Positions 5,243 to 17,443 of a DNA stretch of 64,000 nt are shown in pieces. Under the pieces are notes generated by a model, which saw nothing but the letters and a program-made list of their open reading frames with translations, searched no databases and had not been told where the DNA came from. Position 1 is the first letter of the stretch; every line of letters starts with the position of its first letter. The position numbers were made by a program, and so were the translations under genes. Origin of the DNA: an uncultured delta proteobacterium (GTDB lineage: Bacteria; Desulfobacterota; Binatia; Binatales; Binataceae); contig CAWEEQ010000004.1 of the NCBI GenBank assembly GCA_963808235.1, positions 448,001-512,000 on the forward strand. The letters run 5' to 3'.

Positions 5243-6562
5243 ATGCTGGATGGGTTTTCAAACGCCTCGCGCATCCCGGAATTGCGCCGCCGGCTGCTGT
5301 TCACGGCCGCGATGCTGGCCGTGTATCGGATCGGCGTCGCCGTGCCTACCCCGGGGATCGACGGGCAGGCGCTGCAGTCGTTCTTCGACGCCGCCAGCGG
5401 CACGCTCTTCGGCTGGGTTAATCTCTTCTCGGGCGGCGCGCTCCAGCAATTTTCGGTCCTCGCACTCGGCATCATGCCGTACATCTCGGTCGCGATCGTC
5501 CTCGATCTGCTGAAGATCGCGTCGCCATATCTCGACGAACTCTACAAGGAAGGCGAGGCCGGCCGCCGCAAGATAACGCAATACACCCGCTATGGCACCG
5601 TGCTTCTCGCGCTCTTCCAGGGCACGATGATCGCGTATCTCGCTCGAACAAATTCAGTCGCCCGGCGGCGGCAGTATCGTTTACAATCCGGGCCCCGGCT
5701 TTATCGTGATGACCGTGCTGACCGTCACTGCGGGCACCATGTTCCTGATGTGGATCGGCGAGCAGATCACCGAACGCGGTATCGGCAACGGTATATCGCT
5801 GATCATCATGGCGGGAATCGTGGCGCGCCTGCCGAGCGCGATCAGCACCACGGCGCAGTTCGTGCGCGAGGGCGAAATGAGCGTCTTCCTGCTCATCTTC
5901 ATTCTCGCGATCGCTGCCGCCGTTATCGCCGGGATCGTCTATATCGAGACCGCGCAGCGCCGTATCCCGATTCAGTACGCCCGGCGCGTGGTCGGACGCC
6001 GCGTCTACGGCGGGCAGAGTTCGCATCTGCCGCTCAAGATTAATACCTCGGGCGTTATTCCGCCGATTTTCGCGTCGGCGCTGCTGGTCTTCCCGGCGAC
6101 GCTCGCGACCTTCGTTCCATTTTTGAAACCGTACTCGAGCTATTTGACCCCCGGCGGCTTCTACTACGATCTGGTTTACGTCGCCCTGATCGTGTTCTTC
6201 TGTTACTTCTACACCTCCGTGACATTCAATCCGGTCGACGTCGCCGACAATCTGAAAAAGTACGGCGGCTTTATCCCGGGAATCCGGCCCGGACGTTTCA
6301 CCGCTGACTATATCGATCGCGTGCTGTCGCGGATCACGCTCGGCGGTGCGATTTACGTGAGTGCCGTATGCGTCCTGCCGACGATCCTGATTGCGCGCTT
6401 CAACGTGCCGTTTTTCTTCGGCGGAACCGCGCTGCTGATCGTGGTCGGCGTCGCAATAGACACGGTCGCGCAAATTGAAACTCATCTGCTGACCCGCAAC
6501 TACGAAGGCTTCATGCGCCGCGGACGGGTAGCAGAGACCGTCGCGGACCCGCAGGACCGTAA
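5243..6562 (+). CDS. secY: Preprotein translocase SecY (apparent frameshift near 5636; probable true stop 6560-6562)
   Basis: [24 protein letters not shown] in ORF 5243; [56 protein letters not shown] in ORF 5706. Confidence 0.93.
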
Positions 6563-6620
6563 GGAAGAAGGAGCAAAGGCAAAGACCTGCAGAGCGATCC
6601 GGAAACAGGGGCGCTTAAGC

Positions 6621-7301
6621 GTGCGGCTGGTTCTGCTCGGCCCGCCCGGCGCGGGCAAGGGAACGCAGGCGCGAGCGCTCGGCGCATTATGGAATGTTCC
6701 GCAGATAGCCAGCGGCGATTTGCTGCGCGCCGCGGTGCGGGAAGGTACCGAACTCGGACGCGAGGCGACTCGATATATGGATCGCGGGCAACTGGTGCCC
6801 GATGAACTCGTGTTGAAGCTCGTCGCGGAGCGCCTTGGCCGCAAAGACGCGCGCGCCGGATTTATCCTCGACGGATTCCCGCGCAACGTCGCACAGGCCG
6901 AGACGCTTGCCAGGATGCTCGAGGCGAATGGATCGAAGCTCGATAAAGTCGTCGCGGTGATCGTGCCGGACGAGGAGATCGTGAAACGGATTTCGGGACG
7001 CCGCACCTGTAAGAAATGCGCCGCGATGTATCACGCGATTTTCGAGCCGCCGAAAAAGGCCGGCGTATGCGACAAGTGCGGCGGCGAGCTTTACCAGCGC
7101 GAGGACGACGCCGAGGAGACTGTGCGCGAGCGCCTGAAGGTGTTCGCAGCCGCCACTCGTCCGTTGCTCGATTATTACGGGCGGCTCGCGATGCTCTCCC
7201 AGGTCGACGGAGTGGGACGCACCGACGAAGTCGAAAAGCGGATTCTGAACGCGGTCGGAACTAAGGTTCGCCCGAAGGTCGCCAGTGATTGGAATGATTA
7301 A
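6621..7301 (+). CDS. adk: Adenylate kinase with zinc-binding LID
   Basis: GTG at 6621, [29 protein letters not shown]...CDKC, QREDD. Confidence 0.95.
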
Positions 7302-8065
7302 TTTAAAAACTCCGGCCGAAATAGCCGTGATGCGCAAGGCGAGCCGCATCGTCGCCGAGATTCTCGAGGAGCTTGCCGCCGCGATTCGCCCCGGTATCAC
7401 CACTGAGGAGCTCGATCGGCTGGCCGAGGAAGCTACTTATCGCAAGGGCGCCAAGCCGGCCTTCAAGGGCTACAAGCCCGGCGACGTCGTCTATCCGAAA
7501 TGCCTGTGCGTGTCCGTAAATAATGAGATTGTCCATGGCATTCCGTCGAGTCGAAAATTGAAAAGCGGAGATATCGTCGGCCTCGATTTCGGAGTCGTTT
7601 ACGAAGGATTCTTCGGCGACTCGGCGCGGACCGTCGCGGTCGGACCCGTTCCCGAGCACGTCCAGAAACTGCTCAAGGTGACGCGCGACTCGCTATACGC
7701 GGGAATCGCGCAGGCTCGCGGCCGGCAACCGTATCAGCGATATCGCACGAGCGGTGCAGGCTACGGTCGAAGGCGCGGGATTTTCGGTCGTCACCGACTT
7801 TGCCGGTCACGGAATCGGCCGCCGTCTCCATGAAGATCCCCAGGTGCCGAACTATTTCCGGTTCGGGATGCCCAATCCCCGTCTTCGGGAGGGGATGGCG
7901 CTGGCGATTGAGCCGATGGTTAACGAGGGTAGCCCCGATTTGGAGATACTTTCCGACGGCTGGACTGCGGTGACGGCGGACGGTAAACTATCTGCCCACT
8001 TCGAACATTCCATCGCGATTACCTCCAACGGGCCAGAAATCCTGAGCGAGCTCGAAAATGTCTAA
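7294..8065 (+). CDS. map: Type I methionine aminopeptidase (apparent extra G near 7720)
   Basis: [19 protein letters not shown] in ORF 7285; [28 protein letters not shown] in ORF 7754. Confidence 0.93.
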
Positions 8066-11970: not shown

Positions 11971-12002
11971 AAAGGCACGAAGAATAAATCTTCGTGCCTT
12001 TT
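11971..12002 (+). terminator. Intrinsic terminator of the ribosomal superoperon (possibly bidirectional)
   Basis: AAAGGCACGAAGA-ATAAA-TCTTCGTGCCTTT perfect 13-bp stem followed by T-rich tract. Confidence 0.88.
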
Positions 12003-12021
12003 CCTTTCTGTCCCGCCGGAC

Positions 12022-15000
12022 GTGAGCTCGCGCGCAGACATCTCTGCCTTACCGACCGACCTAGCGAGCCTTCGATTGGCTGGTGCGGAGACTAACCAAA
12101 CCGTGGTTCAGTCACCCATCGTTCTCGAGACCACGGATGCAATTCGGCGTTTGGTAGAACACTCTCGACCAGAGTCCTCTCCTGTGGCCGGAACTCTCGG
12201 CTATGCAGCAACGGCTCGACTAGTCGACAAGGATCTGTTGATTAGGTCTCGGGTACCTGAGATCAGCTGCACAATCGAAGAAAGCTTCTGGATCGCTGCG
12301 AGCCAAGCACTAAGCGAAGATACAGGTCTGGCATTCGATCGAAACGATGCTGGAAGAATAGGCGACTTAGAATTACTGGACTTTCCGTCAGGCGATGTTT
12401 ACGGACGGTCATCAGTTGAATGGGCGCCGATTGTCACGCGACAAACATCAACTGCCGGGACGGTCGTCAAAACCGATTGTAGAGCGGTCGAAGTCCGCGT
12501 CACGAAGTCCGCTTCGAATGCTTTCGCCGCCGCCTCTTCGGTCTACATTAGATGCGAAATCCGCAGTGACAATGAAATTATTTCCGATGATATTCGCGAG
12601 GTTTCCTTTGACGGCGACCGCATAGTGCAGAAGTTCGATGCCCCTGAGCAGATTTGTAAGGTTGGCATTTCTGTTTGGGCCGTGAGCGAGGATCGGGGCA
12701 CGCTGGTTTATCAAGAACATGGTACGCTCGTCCGACAAATCGTCTCTAACTTTGGTGTAGTCGGCGCGGTCGGTAGACTGCAAGGAGGGTGGTCGAACCA
12801 TATCAATCCCAAGGGAGCCGAGGGCCGCGTCGCAGAGGCAGAATCGTTCAAACGCATTCACTATGAGCGCCGCGATATTGGAAGCTACGAAAACGATTCG
12901 TGGGTGCCGGCGGCTCGAAAGCAGCGGGAAAAAATGCTGCGATTGCGCCCCGATGTATCAGGTGCGCGCTTCTTTCCGATCGGTTGGGAACCTGAATTTG
13001 CGACTTGGCTCAAAGAACTTACCTCGGTAGTCGACATCGAGCGAGTGCTCCTAGTCGATCCGTACTTTGATTCGGCTGGGCTCATCTCGCTGATCGCGCG
13101 CGCTGGAGTTCAGAACGCGAAATACTCGGTTCTGACGGCGTTCAATCACCGCCCCAAAGGCGGCAAGGTGAGTCGCCCGCGCCTGATAGAACGGTGCGAG
13201 CAGTTGCGCGCCGTGTTGCCGACTTACTTTCGCATCGAGGAAATTGGCCCCTCAGGGGCTGGCGACGACGCACTGATTCATGATCGGTACCTGATGCTTT
13301 GGAACCGAGCTGGAGAAGTTGTTCGAGCATTCAGTCTTACCAACTCACTGCAAGGAGCAACGCGTGAGCATCCCATGCTGGCAACGCCCATACCGGCGGA
13401 CGTGCTTCCGAAAGTAGTGTCATATATTCGGGAGATCCAAAGCGGCAAACACCCTCGCGGCACTGCAGTTACCGTAAAGACGCTTTGGGACAAGTACCCC
13501 GCCGAACGCAAGAGGGCCGCCGCGACCGGACCAGATTATCGCGTGATCGCTGAAGTATTGCTCAGCAAACACTTTGATAGCAATTTGTCTGCGCAAGCGG
13601 CTCTGGATGGCGCCGGTATGTGCGACTCGGCGACCAACCAATTCAATCTCGAAGCTGTGAAGCGTCGTCTGATTGGTCCAGAACTAGGAAAGTCCCGCCG
13701 GGTTCGCATGTCAATCAAGCGTTGGTCGGCACTTTCAGAAGTCAGCGTACGCACGGACGAGGAGGCCGGTCTAAGCCTCTTGCACGATGTCGTCGCGACA
13801 GGGAGCTCAGGACTAGATATCGTTGAAGAGGTCATTGTTAGAGCGCCGGTCCGACGGATGCCGTCAGGCACCGCGGATGCTGAAGTTGTGGCTGAAGATT
13901 TGACCATGGCAAGTGCGGTGCTTCATCCGTTTCCCCAGGCACTGAAATACGCAGACTCATTGCTTGATAGGCCATGGGAGTTTCGAGGTTTGTCGGTTTG
14001 GCCGCTGACTCAAGCCGTTAACTACTTGGCAGCAAAGCATCCGAATCGGCTCGTTCGTGCTATGGAGCGGCTCATTGATTGCTATTCGCCGACGCTTCGC
14101 GATGGCGGAGCGACCCCCGCTACGTATCCGGTGGCACGTGCGATTTCAATCGCACTTAGCCACGTTAGTGCATCGTTTTACCGGGCGGCGCGCGAAGCTC
14201 TTGAGACCGCTTTCATCTCAAGCCGAGTTGGGCTTCTTAGGGCCGTCGGTGCGGCGTCCTTGTCAGATCGCTTCATCAATGGACAGACCGTTCATGAGAG
14301 CTGTCTGACGAGCCTCCACCTATCGGTCGATGAACAGGTGTACGCCATGGCCCACATACACAACTCATTGCTATTTCAAAGGCCGAAGGTGGGAGGATCG
14401 TCCTCATCACCGTACGACGCAGCTACGATCGACTCCAAGCTTTCTATTTCTCGGCGCCTGTTGTCTGAGAGCATTCCCCCGAATTTGACGATAGAGAAAT
14501 TGCGTGAACTGGCTCACGCGATCAGCGGAGCTTTCGAAGGGGGCAATGCGATGGAACTCCAACGCCTGTTCGACGACGCCGCAAAGATTGGTACATTGGA
14601 GATCGGGCTCGCGCATCGCCTGTTTTTTCAACTTCTTTGCGATAAACTCTCGCTATTCTTCGCCACGGATAGCCGGCCTAACTTCTATCTTCCGGTTGAT
14701 GGCCCGCTTACGCTCGTCACCGCACAAATCTGCGAATCTGCCAACGCGGAATCTTGCGCGGTCCTCTCTAGCGAGCTAGCTCGGATCGGCGATCAATTGC
14801 TAAATCAATTGAGGGCGCCCTTCCTTCGGTCGAGAAACTATACTTCCTGGAGGAACGCGCGTGATGGTGCGCTCTGGATAGTTGCGTTCACTGACGTACT
14901 TGAGAGTGTATCTGCGGCTGGAGTCGAAGTTCCTGCCAACCTCACCATGTTCCGTTCGGATCTTGAATCGGCTTTGAGGCCATTTCCGGACGAAGAGAGA

Positions 15001-15111
15001 TTTGGTTCTCATATAGATTGGTTCGCAACGTATGTACGACAAGCCCGCGGGAGAATCAGCGCCATAGAGCTTGCCAAGCAGCTTCACCGAACACTGGCAT
15101 CCGCCCACTAG
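12022..15111 (+). CDS. VPA1262-family-like large protein with PLD-like nuclease motifs; possibly 5'-truncated
   Basis: 1029-aa open frame; DTGLAF...RIGDLELLDFP, VLLVDPYFDSAGL, IHDRYLML, FSLTNSLQ; atypical codon usage with many A/T-ending codons. Confidence 0.65.
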   Translation: MSSRADISALPTDLASLRLAGAETNQTVVQSPIVLETTDAIRRLVEHSRPESSPVAGTLGYAATARLVDKDLLIRSRVPEISCTIEESFWIAASQALSEDTGLAFDRNDAGRIGDLELLDFPSGDVYGRSSVEWAPIVTRQTSTAGTVVKTDCRAVEVRVTKSASNAFAAASSVYIRCEIRSDNEIISDDIREVSFDGDRIVQKFDAPEQICKVGISVWAVSEDRGTLVYQEHGTLVRQIVSNFGVVGAVGRLQGGWSNHINPKGAEGRVAEAESFKRIHYERRDIGSYENDSWVPAARKQREKMLRLRPDVSGARFFPIGWEPEFATWLKELTSVVDIERVLLVDPYFDSAGLISLIARAGVQNAKYSVLTAFNHRPKGGKVSRPRLIERCEQLRAVLPTYFRIEEIGPSGAGDDALIHDRYLMLWNRAGEVVRAFSLTNSLQGATREHPMLATPIPADVLPKVVSYIREIQSGKHPRGTAVTVKTLWDKYPAERKRAAATGPDYRVIAEVLLSKHFDSNLSAQAALDGAGMCDSATNQFNLEAVKRRLIGPELGKSRRVRMSIKRWSALSEVSVRTDEEAGLSLLHDVVATGSSGLDIVEEVIVRAPVRRMPSGTADAEVVAEDLTMASAVLHPFPQALKYADSLLDRPWEFRGLSVWPLTQAVNYLAAKHPNRLVRAMERLIDCYSPTLRDGGATPATYPVARAISIALSHVSASFYRAAREALETAFISSRVGLLRAVGAASLSDRFINGQTVHESCLTSLHLSVDEQVYAMAHIHNSLLFQRPKVGGSSSSPYDAATIDSKLSISRRLLSESIPPNLTIEKLRELAHAISGAFEGGNAMELQRLFDDAAKIGTLEIGLAHRLFFQLLCDKLSLFFATDSRPNFYLPVDGPLTLVTAQICESANAESCAVLSSELARIGDQLLNQLRAPFLRSRNYTSWRNARDGALWIVAFTDVLESVSAAGVEVPANLTMFRSDLESALRPFPDEERFGSHIDWFATYVRQARGRISAIELAKQLHRTLASAH

Positions 15112-15185
15112 TCAATTAGCCCGCCTTCAAGAAAGCGACACATCGCCGTCCTTAGTTACTCCATGCTGCTATTGCAACCCAATAG

Positions 15186-15380
15186 TTACTCACGGGCGAG
15201 CTTGCCGCTCTTGATGAGTCCTGCTTTCACCTTATCGAGCGGAATCCGCTTTTCGTGCCGGCGCGACCGCGAGACAAGCACATCCTGGAGGTCTTCCCAT
15301 AGCTCCCGATGCTTTGTCAGGTCGATTTGAACGGCTACCTTGCGGCCCTTCTCATCGGTCAGGTATCGGATTCCGGTCAT
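15186..15380 (-). CDS. Small RelB-like antitoxin candidate (orphan)
   Basis: MTGIRYLTDEKGRKVAVQIDL...LWEDLQD...IPLDKVK pattern typical of type II antitoxins upstream of RelE/ParE toxins; GGAGG upstream. Confidence 0.55.
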   Translation of the reverse strand: MTGIRYLTDEKGRKVAVQIDLTKHRELWEDLQDVLVSRSRRHEKRIPLDKVKAGLIKSGKLARE

Positions 15381-15456
15381 GGCTTCGTTCTTTCCTCCAT
15401 GCGATCGCATCGGCGAATCCGACGCCTCTCTGCAGCAGCAGTCGATCTTACGCCGC

Positions 15457-15846
15457 TTATATCATTTTGGAATTCATCGCCGGTTGGAGCATTTCCCCGC
15501 CAATTGTCATTATCGGGCGCACCTCGATTGTGCCGAGTTTCGCGAGGGGAATTTTTGTCGCGATCTCGACCGCCTCGTCCATATTCGCCGCGTCGACCAG
15601 GATGAAGCCGCCCAAATGCTCTTTGGTTTCGGCGAACGGTCCGTCGGTAATCTTTGCCTTGCCGCGGCGAACTCGCACGGTACGCGCGCTGCTGACCGGC
15701 TGGAGCGCATCGGAACCCAGGTAGCGGCCACTGCGGTCAAGCTCCTTATCATAGGCGATAGAGTCGCGGTCCAAAGTCGTTTTTTCGCTCGGCGTAAGTC
15801 CCGCCAACGTTCGCGGCTCGAAATAAACCAGGCACAGAAATTTCAT
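15457..15846 (-). CDS. YciI/DGPF-domain protein
   Basis: ALQPVSSARTVRVR, ITDGPFAETKEHLGGFILVD, GTIEVRPI. Confidence 0.92.
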   Translation of the reverse strand: MKFLCLVYFEPRTLAGLTPSEKTTLDRDSIAYDKELDRSGRYLGSDALQPVSSARTVRVRRGKAKITDGPFAETKEHLGGFILVDAANMDEAVEIATKIPLAKLGTIEVRPIMTIGGEMLQPAMNSKMI

Positions 15847-15896
15847 CGTTTAACTCCTTGCGCAGCGTCGATCGATTGATGCGCCAACATAGGTGA

Positions 15897-15923
15897 GTCG
15901 TTCGAGCTCCAACGGGATCGACA
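15897..15923 (-). promoter_or_regulatory. ECF42-type promoter for DGPF gene 1
   Basis: Minus strand TGTCGA-N17-CGAC, same layout as upstream of DGPF gene 2. Confidence 0.7.
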
Positions 15924-15994
15924 TTCCAACTTTCCAACGGGCTGTCAGGCCGCATATTCTCTGATAAACTTCCGATTACAGGCGGCAAAATATA

Positions 15995-17443
15995 ATGTCC
16001 AACGAACTCGTTGCTCCCGATAAATTCTTTCTGAACCGCTTCGGCATGAACCACGGCGCGCTCGAGCGAATCCTCGGCAGCGCGCTCGAACGCAAAGCCG
16101 ATTACGCCGATCTCTACTTCGAGTACCGCAGCTCGGAAGGCCTCGGTCTCGAAGAGTCGATGGTTAATCACACCAGCAAATCGGTCAGCCACGGCGTCGG
16201 CGTCCGCGTATGCGCCGACGATCGCACCGGCTACGCCTACTCCGACGAGGTGACGATCGACCGGATGCGCCTCGCCGCCGAGGCCGCCCGCGCGATCGCC
16301 GATCAGCGCGGCGCCGCGCCCGCCGCAGTGCAGGTCGGCACACCGGCCGCGCATCATGCGCTCTACGATCTCCCGAGCACCCCGCTCGACGTTCCAGTAG
16401 AGGAGCGCGCGAAATTGCTCAGCGAGATCGATAAGGTGGTGCGAGCCTACGATCCGCGCGTGAAAAACGTGATGGCGTCGTTCGCATGCGAGCAGAAGAT
16501 CGTGATGATCGTGAACAGCGACGGCCAAGTCGCCGCGGACATGCAGCCGTTATGCCGCCTCAACGTGACCGTTATTGCCGACGACGGCAAGGGCCGGCAA
16601 GCCGGCTCGTATGGTGGCGGCGGCCGAGTCGAGTGGAAATATTTTCTCGAGAACGAGCGCTGGCGCGAGTATGCGATCGAAGCGGCGCGGCAGGCGATCG
16701 TCAATCTCGACGCGGTTGATGCGCCCGCGGGCGAGATGGTTGTGGTGCTGGGCAACGGATGGCCGGGGATTCTGCTCCATGAGGCAATCGGTCACGGCCT
16801 CGAAGGCGACTTCAACCGCAAGGGCACATCGGCGTTCGCGAATCGAATCGGGGAGAAGGTCGCCAGCGAACTCTGTACGGTTATCGACGATGGGACTATC
16901 CCGAATCGGCGCGGCAGTTTGAATGTCGACGACGAAGGCACCAAGACCTCGCGCACCGTGCTGATCGAAAAGGGAATTCTGCGCGGTTATCTGCAGGATC
17001 GGATGAACGCGCGGCTGATGAAGATGGCGCCGACGGGCAACGGGCGGCGTGAGAGCTTCGCGCATTCTCCAATGCCGCGCATGACCAATACCTTCATGCT
17101 GGCCGGCGAATCGACGCCCGAGGAGATCATCAAGTCGGTGCAGAACGGACTCTACGCGGTCAGCTTCGGCGGCGGACAGGTCGATATTACCAATGGCAAA
17201 TTTGTTTTCTCCGCGAGCGAGGCTTACCTGATTGAAGACGGGAAAGTGACCCGGCCGGTGAAGGGCGCGACGCTTATCGGCAACGGGCCCGACGTTCTCA
17301 CCCGCGTCTCGATGGTGGGCAACGACCTGGCGCTCGACGCGGGCGTCGGGACCTGTGGCAAGGACGGGCAGTCGGTGCCGGTGGGCGTGGGGCTGCCGAC
17401 GATTCGAATCGACGGCATAACGGTCGGCGGCACTCGCGCCTGA
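15995..17443 (+). CDS. tldD: Metalloprotease TldD
   Basis: DYADLYFEY, GWPGILLHEAIGHGLEGDFNRKG, PMPRMTNT, CGKDGQSVPVGVG. Confidence 0.96.
   Translation: MSNELVAPDKFFLNRFGMNHGALERILGSALERKADYADLYFEYRSSEGLGLEESMVNHTSKSVSHGVGVRVCADDRTGYAYSDEVTIDRMRLAAEAARAIADQRGAAPAAVQVGTPAAHHALYDLPSTPLDVPVEERAKLLSEIDKVVRAYDPRVKNVMASFACEQKIVMIVNSDGQVAADMQPLCRLNVTVIADDGKGRQAGSYGGGGRVEWKYFLENERWREYAIEAARQAIVNLDAVDAPAGEMVVVLGNGWPGILLHEAIGHGLEGDFNRKGTSAFANRIGEKVASELCTVIDDGTIPNRRGSLNVDDEGTKTSRTVLIEKGILRGYLQDRMNARLMKMAPTGNGRRESFAHSPMPRMTNTFMLAGESTPEEIIKSVQNGLYAVSFGGGQVDITNGKFVFSASEAYLIEDGKVTRPVKGATLIGNGPDVLTRVSMVGNDLALDAGVGTCGKDGQSVPVGVGLPTIRIDGITVGGTRA

Follow-up and report, generated by a model that had tools for sequence, protein, structure and literature searches.

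The window, a stretch of 64,000 nucleotides of DNA from an uncultured delta proteobacterium (contig CAWEEQ010000004.1, positions 448,001 to 512,000), contains an open reading frame (ORF) of 1029 codons at positions 12022..15111 of the forward strand that encodes a divergent, N-terminally truncated protein of the VPA1262 family. This family was renamed Juno in August 2026 (bioRxiv 10.64898/2026.08.01.741415). The ORF has GTG as its first codon, contains no internal stop, and lies directly 3' of rpsM-rpsK-rpsD-rpoA-rplQ, the last of which (ribosomal protein L17, 11495..11944, forward strand) is the conserved left flank. In the public gene call the start is placed 27 codons further in, at GTG 12103, which gives a protein of 1002 aa (P0002). 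On the 3' side a 74-aa ORF and a YCII-domain gene, both on the opposite strand, are followed by tldD (15995..17443, forward strand), which is the conserved right flank, and then by pmbA and a Crp/Fnr regulator gene.

An initial annotation, made from the sequence alone, had described a long, intact ORF of low GC content and foreign codon usage set right after the ribosomal-protein genes. Its placement and composition are borne out. The GC content is 0.551 in the ORF and 0.610 in the whole window, and the GC content at third codon positions (GC3) is 0.565, against 0.680-0.791 across eight neighbouring genes (rpsM, rpsK, rpsD, rpoA, rplQ, tldD, pmbA and crp). Four codons had been named as characteristic. 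Two of these, CTA (11.7 per 1000 codons versus 3.2 in the eight neighbours pooled) and GTA (11.7 versus 3.6), are in clear excess of about threefold, whereas the excess of TTA (2.9 versus 0.9) and ACT (8.7 versus 6.3) is small. The central motif set that had been quoted is present in the translation, with LLVDPYF at aa 343-349, IHDRYL at aa 419-424 and SLTNSL at aa 438-443. The word intact applies to the reading frame, which is unbroken, but not to the gene, from which about 105 N-terminal residues of the family are missing.

The annotation also proposed an undescribed anti-phage system. The defence role holds at the family level and the novelty does not, as the family has been named and tested: a Pantoea agglomerans member and Vibrio parahaemolyticus VPA1262 were cloned into Escherichia coli, and the two reduced plaques more than 100-fold for 4 of 12 coliphages (bioRxiv 10.64898/2026.08.01.741415). 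Single-gene phage resistance has been shown in that work for two members other than the one in the window. The anti-phage reading of the family is therefore already known, and it is the mechanism that is still without a published account in the main text of the preprint, from which the words PLD, nuclease, abortive, AlphaFold and 'domain architecture' are absent (the supplements lie outside this statement). A literature search for Juno and anti-phage defense from 2024 onward returned no further paper on the Juno system. The V. parahaemolyticus island from which the family takes its name, described in the annotation as rich in defence genes, is the GMT mobile island, and the preprint on this island mentions vpa1262 solely as the boundary of a deleted region. 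The gene is best labelled as a VPA1262/Juno-family protein, N-terminally truncated, and not as a new defence system.

Family membership and the missing N-terminus

At the domain level, the window protein is a member of the VPA1262/Juno family, as the initial annotation had proposed. The NCBIfam model of the N-terminal domain, NF040700 (VPA1262_N_dom), matches aa 92-472 at profile positions 111-475 of 478 with 204.5 bits (cut-off 80). The full-length model, NF040699 (VPA1262_fam), aligns collinearly over aa 27-954 at profile positions 107-1026 of 1026, with a score of 301.1 bits (cut-off 325). All six of the closest relatives (P0003, P0004, P0005, P0013, P0014 and P0015) are also below this cut-off, at 207-304 bits, although five of them have the N-terminal module. 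Because these module-bearing relatives fall short as well, the low score reflects divergence of the clade and not truncation alone. Among more distant homologues, 10 of the 11 tested score 339-1192 bits on NF040699, and the other, L052, scores 304. An exhaustive HMMER search over 1.84 billion cluster representatives identified 383 homologues at E<=1e-3, of which 254 are at E<=1e-10 and 82 at E<=1e-30.

Read from the sequence, the window copy has lost the first ~105 residues of the family, together with the native start and promoter. Alignment to the two NCBIfam profiles does not begin before position 107 or 111, whereas for full-length relatives it begins at positions 1-18. The full-length relative P0004 (42% identity, 1134 aa) can be aligned to the genome, at window 12019-15084, from residue 110 of P0004 onwards, and its aa 1-109, as part of the query, have no counterpart anywhere else in the 4.59-Mb assembly. 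Of the 115 homologues that reach 1000 aa or more, 112 have at least 61 extra residues before the conserved G114 (median 103). Likewise, at 16 of 16 genomic homologue loci the ORF begins 330-640 nt upstream of the aligned part. An alignment of 16 sequences sets the start of homology at about the fifth codon of the ORF, a cut that falls within a conserved block and not between domains, and five family-conserved columns lie in the missing part. The in-frame codons upstream of the ORF are the end of rplQ and its intrinsic terminator, a hairpin with a 13-bp stem and a T-run (11971..12001, forward strand) that ends 21 nt before the first codon. The space between this terminator and the first codon lacks a promoter-like site, and within the ORF no ATG codon is reached before aa 305. 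Because the native start and promoter have been lost and homology begins right after the rplQ terminator, expression of the window copy would have to come from terminator read-through and the GTG start. The missing module itself offers few leads; the N-terminal 130 residues of the family, taken from P0005, have no usable match in the Protein Atlas, and a helix-turn-helix look may be an impression from the consensus alone.

Is the window copy a broken gene, or is it a functional natural short form of Juno? In the latter case the ~105-residue module would be dispensable or regulatory, and the gene would be expressed by read-through of the ribosomal operon, which is strongly transcribed. We hold such a short form to be possible, at rather less than an even chance. 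No stop interrupts the 1029 codons, and none of the invariant residues has been lost. The retained part shows no decay: it departs from the family at 6 of 55 conserved columns, in line with the family median (10%), and the full-length sisters deviate more (P0004 at 12 of 60, P0005 at 15 of 60). The 80%-identical P0003 is also open, over 978 aa, and 3 of the 115 long homologues are short at the N-terminus too (<50 residues). Additionally, the structure model described below is confident without the module. These points have to be set against the position of the break inside a conserved family block instead of at a domain border, the five conserved columns that went with it, the lack of a promoter-like site in the 21 nt that separate the 13-bp-stem terminator from the first codon, and the late first ATG. 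Taking the sequence evidence together, the chances of a copy that is still protective would be slightly under one half, and those of a disabled or silent copy slightly over it. A sequencing-run search listed no RNA run and returned four soil-metagenome DNA runs with 5-7% of words; a search of metagenome contigs for related loci gave 32 pattern matches, none of them confirmed.

Foreign origin and the rplQ-tldD gap

The ORF lies in a genome-specific segment of 3.95 kb (12008..15958, GC 0.553) between conserved flanks. In blastn comparisons with 11 relatives that have a short rplQ-tldD gap, DNA homology ends at window 12007 and resumes at 15959, and the last left-side sequence common to the relatives is the rplQ terminator region. 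Of 41 genomes searched, the source genome (G000) is the only one with a Juno-like protein; none was found in the 24 others of the same genus or in 16 others of the same class. In the phylum as a whole, the N-domain model scores above its cut-off in 2 of 401 genomes. As it was found in none of the 40 relatives, is rare in the phylum and has an atypical GC3, the gene looks foreign, as first proposed. The left edge of the foreign segment coincides with the break in the gene, and this coincidence fits either the uptake of a fragment through recombination or the loss of the 5' end of the gene in a later deletion. The surroundings of 12008-15958 show neither flanking direct repeats nor att-like sites nor an integrase, and the window contains no tRNA. 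An assembly chimera was considered as the source of the segment and rejected, because on both sides the conserved gene order carries on within the same contig.

Besides the Juno-like ORF, the segment holds the two small genes on the opposite strand. The YCII-domain protein (15457..15846, reverse strand, 129 aa, PF03795 at 79.7 bits) is convergent with the Juno-like ORF and has no counterpart at the rplQ-tldD loci of the relatives. The 74-aa ORF (15186..15410, reverse strand) has a weak RelB-antitoxin-like match (PF18506, 20.1 bits, cut-off 27), no partner toxin and no PADLOC match. A toxin-antitoxin pair made of this ORF and the large one was rejected, on the grounds of the opposite strands and the score below the cut-off; no such small ORF was called beside the target in the 16 homologue loci, where only ORFs of at least 90 aa were called. 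The GC3 of the two small genes is 0.67-0.69, closer to that of the host than the GC3 of the Juno-like ORF is, and for this reason they may have arrived separately.

What else is found at this location in the genus? The rplQ gene was located in 24 of 25 other genomes, and tldD follows it in 22 of the 24, rplQ being at a contig end in the other two (G018 and G023). The latter are unpublished genomes that enter only the counts 0 of 24 and 24 of 25, and no conclusion changes without them. The gap between the two genes is ~0.2-0.55 kb in 11 genomes, where no cargo gene was seen. It is 0.85-1.3 kb in four genomes with small ORFs, one of them a DUF1801 gene, ~2.0 and 2.6 kb in two genomes (G019 and G006) with an AAA_15/AAA_21 ATPase and a 149-aa partner, and ~2.8-3.0 kb in five genomes with a sulfatase. 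The rplQ-tldD gap is thus a small cargo-swapping spot in this genus. The ATPases in G019 (L027:475-2349) and G006 (L033:478-2217) match NsnB in PADLOC at 1e-39 to 5e-41, and also PDC-M55A, while their 149-aa partner has no family match.

The PLD-like core and its predicted dimer

A full-length AlphaFold2 model of the window protein, built with a 68-sequence alignment, has a mean predicted local distance difference test score (pLDDT) of 86.9 and a predicted template modelling score (pTM) of 0.82, and a model of aa 110-500 reaches a pLDDT of 91.9. After a linker region (aa 1-115), the models contain an immunoglobulin/fibronectin type III (Ig/FnIII)-like beta-sandwich domain (12385..12735, aa 122-238), a domain with the phospholipase D (PLD) superfamily fold (12952..13500, aa 311-493), and a C-terminal solenoid-like domain of ~520 aa (13537..15105, aa 506-1028), all encoded on the forward strand. 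The C-terminal domain is predicted to be all-helical, in agreement with the helical terminus of about 500 aa that had been read from the sequence. The beta-sandwich matches the Integrator chain 8rbx_g, factor XIII (4kty) and glycoside hydrolase family 2 (GH2) enzymes with Z up to 9.5, which identifies the fold class only. The matches of the solenoid are weak and of the ARM/HEAT type (E 2e-4 in Foldseek, Z 7-8). They are at or below the helical background and are no evidence of a new fold.

The PLD fold of the central domain, expected by the initial annotation, was returned by VIA-align, Foldseek and a second fold search alike. In the VIA-align search, which covered 48,161 representative chains, every row that could be named and was not a sandwich was a PLD-superfamily fold; taken with the second fold search, more than 15 such entries are at Z 9-11.8. 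The best match is FAM83 (4urj, Z 11.8, 155 residues aligned, root-mean-square deviation 3.5), closely followed by the nuclease domain of SauUSI (7clg_B, Z 11.7, 147 aligned, deviation 2.9). FAM83B (5lzk, Z 10.9), PPK1 (1xdo, 10.1), Nuc (1bys, 10.0, with 146 of 152 residues aligned), NucT (6ehi, 10.0), BfiI (2c1l, 9.5), TrmB (9.4), PssA (3hsi, 9.4), MITD1 (9.2), NgoAVII (4rct, 9.0), Zucchini (4ggj, 9.0), vaccinia F13 (8.7) and the phospholipases D 7wu1, 7e0m and 2ze4 (8.1-8.9) come after these. PLD-superfamily chains are also on top when the domain model is searched with Foldseek (PPK1 6.7e-6, Tdp1 5e-4, NucT 2e-3), and they were returned again by the second fold search on the full-length model, among them the phosphatidylserine synthase 8yr5 at Z 10.3. 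With the full-length model, the Foldseek list was filled by ARM/HEAT repeats, and PPK1 alone hinted at the PLD fold. Sequence searches did not find this relationship: a search of the PDB with a 150-sequence profile returned designed helical repeats alone (best E 0.005) and no PLD protein, and no Pfam PLD model matches the window protein at E<=1.

The canonical PLD motif, HKD, is HxK(x)4D(x)6GSxN. In the window protein its place is taken by H420-D421-R422 (13279..13287), a family variant of HxK, and by T440-N441-S442 (13339..13347), the counterpart of GSxN that is S-N-S in the family, and a DPYF motif precedes these at aa 346-349 (13057..13068). In the secondary structure of the model, H-x-R stands at a strand start and is followed by a hairpin and S-N-S, the same arrangement as HxK...GSxN in PLD enzymes. 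Conservation was counted over 150 aligned homologues with a mean column identity of ~14%. D346 and P347 are each present in 150 of 150, H420 in 149 of 149, D421 in 148 of 149 and R422 in 149 of 149. At position 440, 141 of the 150 have S and 7 have T; N441 is found in 134 and S442 in 149. All of the family motifs, D-P-Y/F-F, H-D-R and S/T-N-S, are therefore present in the window protein. The position of the HKD Asp is occupied by W427, and by F, Y or L in most homologues. The claim that the DPY and HDR motifs mark a PLD nuclease is not supported: the site is a non-canonical HxR, the Asp is absent and the Pfam PLD models are unmatched. A nuclease would be one candidate role for the domain, beside a lipid-directed or a non-catalytic one.

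Two copies of aa 299-500 were predicted to form a symmetric dimer, with a score of 0.51 (median of three runs) versus 0.17 for the best of three controls. In calibration, 20 of 30 solved pairs passed the dimer mark, as did 1 of 23 single chains, a rate that is only a rough guide because a custom alignment was used here. At least 91% of contacts are common to the runs, and the partner pLDDT is at least 77. The predicted interface includes residues 420-422 and 440-442, with contacts R422-T440' and M452-H420'. Such a two-chain site would be the arrangement of the single-motif PLD nucleases, in which one active site is built from two chains. The dimer pass may also reflect a memory of, or likeness to, solved PLD dimers, in which case it would not be independent evidence.

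From these models, the best-supported mechanism for the family would be that of a PLD-type phosphodiesterase that is dimeric, is coupled to a sensor and has the HxR variant as its site. The solenoid, the beta-sandwich or both would recognise a phage component. Pairing of two PLD-like domains would bring their HxR motifs together into a single phosphodiesterase site, on the pattern of Nuc, BfiI and SauUSI. The paired site would then cut a phosphodiester substrate, more likely nucleic acid and possibly lipid, and this cut would stop the infection.

A PLD fold does not by itself imply catalysis, because FAM83, TrmB and MITD1 score as high as the nucleases. Could the domain serve only for dimerisation or ligand binding, as in FAM83, MITD1 and the sensor domain of TrmB, with protection coming from elsewhere in the protein, for example from sequestration by the solenoid? 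The top structural match is to a pseudo-enzyme, and the exchange of Lys for Arg, the missing Asp and the lack of a Pfam PLD match would suit such a role. We consider it unlikely. Over 149-150 sequences with a mean column identity of only ~14%, the His, Asp, Arg, Asn and Ser hardly vary; in the predicted dimer they come together at just the place where PLD enzymes form their site, and the nucleases SauUSI and Nuc score equally high (11.7 and 10.0). An action on membrane phospholipids, as for Cls, Pss and PLD, with the infected cell killed by membrane damage, is less likely still. The phosphatidylserine synthases (Z 9.4 and 10.3) and phospholipases D (8.1-8.9) speak for it. Against it, the matches to single-domain nucleases are no poorer and take in almost the entire nuclease chain (146 of 152 residues in Nuc), and the model has no membrane-type segment and a soluble solenoid; fold scores alone do not separate a nucleic-acid from a lipid substrate.

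Homologue loci and comparison with known systems

Sixteen homologue loci from 16 species, including myxobacteria, cyanobacteria, Bacteroidota, Rhizobium and WOR-3, were compared, and PADLOC was run on their 203 neighbour proteins (E<=1e-5). Defence components are strongly matched within 10 kb at 7 of the 16 loci, a supportive count that has no random-locus baseline and so is not a measured enrichment. These are PD-DExK, a methyltransferase and a DolB-like gene at L041; an ATPase-Toprim/AriA-like gene and a methyltransferase at L043; PDC-S02 at L044; AbiEi and AbiEii directly downstream, with DrmMII and MzaB, at L048; capH and capP directly upstream at L051; SIR2-HerA, LmuA-like, HEC-01A-like and PD-T4-6 genes at L052; and a DRT nitrilase with PDC-M62A/B at L053. 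Six loci (L038, L039, L040, L042, L045 and L050) have weak or generic matches only, and none were found at L046, L047 and L049, the last a 6-kb contig. Homologues are also found on 5 of 72,556 plasmid records, four of them typed as conjugative. On an Agrobacterium plasmid, the neighbours of the homologue are a NERD-domain gene, an integrase and toxin-antitoxin pairs.

Some of the homologue loci have features of their own. The capH/capP pair (L051:8173-9274; PADLOC 2e-8 and 1e-63) is in a Maribacter metagenome-assembled genome (MAG), and, as the immediate upstream neighbour of the Juno homologue, it hints at transcriptional control of the CapH/CapP type for some Juno genes. In a deltaproteobacterial MAG, the closest homologue in a genome record (42% identity; L038:9668-13083) is spread over two ORFs that overlap, of 411 and 736 aa, owing either to a frameshift or to a long-read error. 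Shorter relatives also occur. In the same phylum, an ORF of ~529 aa (L054, genome G266) matches the whole N-domain model at 240 bits and apparently lacks the helical half, and nine genomes, L056-L059 among their loci, have ORFs of ~150-330 aa that match the PLD-like core only, at about profile positions 305-465. These core-only and N-domain-only ORFs may be split or minimal relatives.

Elsewhere in the window, in the region 5243-8065, the secY gene appears to be frameshifted near 5620-5640, with the N-terminal part in the ORF 5243-6043 and the rest in the ORF 5706-7301. The secY frame runs into adk without a stop codon, and the methionine aminopeptidase ORF (7285-7833) covers profile positions 1-138 of 247 only. 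These breaks look like assembly indel errors and not real gene breaks.

Taken together, the ORF is probably a horizontally acquired, divergent and 5'-truncated member of the VPA1262/Juno single-protein anti-phage genes, in a family for which a PLD-type mechanism is proposed. Several points weigh against this interpretation. The score on the full-length model, 301.1 bits, is under the cut-off of 325 in a divergent clade, and the window protein has no Pfam or PADLOC (2023) match at E<=1. Its likeness to Juno is established through family models and not by direct alignment with the tested P. agglomerans and V. parahaemolyticus proteins. A natural short form is made possible by the three short homologues among the 115, and the nearest relative, P0003, is cut by its contig end and so is uninformative on the N-terminus. 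The motif is not a canonical HKD, having Arg for Lys in every sequence and no Asp four residues later, and the scores of the non-catalytic folds are on a level with those of the nucleases (FAM83 11.8, TrmB 9.4, MITD1 9.2). Comparison of the family profile with the canonical DrmC-like PLD protein of L039 was not significant (hhalign probability 0.11, E 0.51), although the sole local alignment does set H420 and R422 on the His and Lys of that protein. Finally, the window copy is flanked by the housekeeping genes rplQ and tldD with no defence genes, and the PADLOC count of 7 of 16 neighbourhoods stands without a random-locus control.

A bolder proposal would make Juno a separate catalytic branch of the PLD superfamily, with an invariant H-D-R/S-N-S site built across a homodimer and gated by the Ig-like domain and a solenoid sensor, and would make the window copy a working N-terminal deletion fed by read-through of the ribosomal operon. 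We think this improbable as a whole. If the deletion does work, then the ~105-residue module would be a dispensable regulator, and its loss would give a minimal or differently controlled Juno; the truncated copy is a natural test of the need for this module. Beyond the main text of the Juno preprint, the models add a PLD-fold core with an invariant HxR variant, a predicted motif-to-motif dimer, and the Ig-like domain and solenoid as candidate sensors. These point to direct mutants and assays for Juno function.

How does the window protein compare with systems that are already known? DrmC of DISARM, MkoC and DpdK, as collected in PADLOC, are also PLD-superfamily domains in an anti-phage setting, and a DrmC-like gene lies ~1.2 kb from the Juno homologue at L039. 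They differ in that they are parts of multi-gene systems and carry canonical HKD motifs, and the window protein matches none of them at E<=1. The non-catalytic PLD folds, namely FAM83 (DUF1669, 4urj and 5lzk), MITD1 (MIT_C, 2ymb) and TrmB/TrmBL2, have equal or higher scores (Z 9.1-11.8). In these domains the catalytic His is gone, as are its partner residues, whereas the Juno family retains the invariant His-Asp-Arg and Asn-Ser set.

With the single-HKD nucleases (Nuc, NucT, BfiI, NgoAVII R, the N-domain of SauUSI and Zucchini), the window protein shares the fold, at Z 9.0-11.7 over ~140-160 residues, and the position of the motif within it, and its predicted symmetric dimer likewise joins two motifs. 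It differs from them by HxR instead of HxK, by the missing Asp four residues later, by S-N-S instead of GSxN, and by the setting of its PLD-like domain, which belongs to a chain of over 1000 aa that also contains a beta-sandwich and a solenoid. Neither sequence nor profile comparison gave a significant match to a PLD protein. From Juno it differs, with its subclade, in scoring below the NF040699 cut-off (301 versus 325 bits), and in its lack of the first ~105 residues and its location between housekeeping genes and not in a defence island. With Juno it shares the collinear alignment over aa 27-954, the pass on the N-domain model, the DPYF, HDR and SNS motifs, the helical C-terminal half and the single-gene layout, in a family whose distribution is sporadic and mobile.

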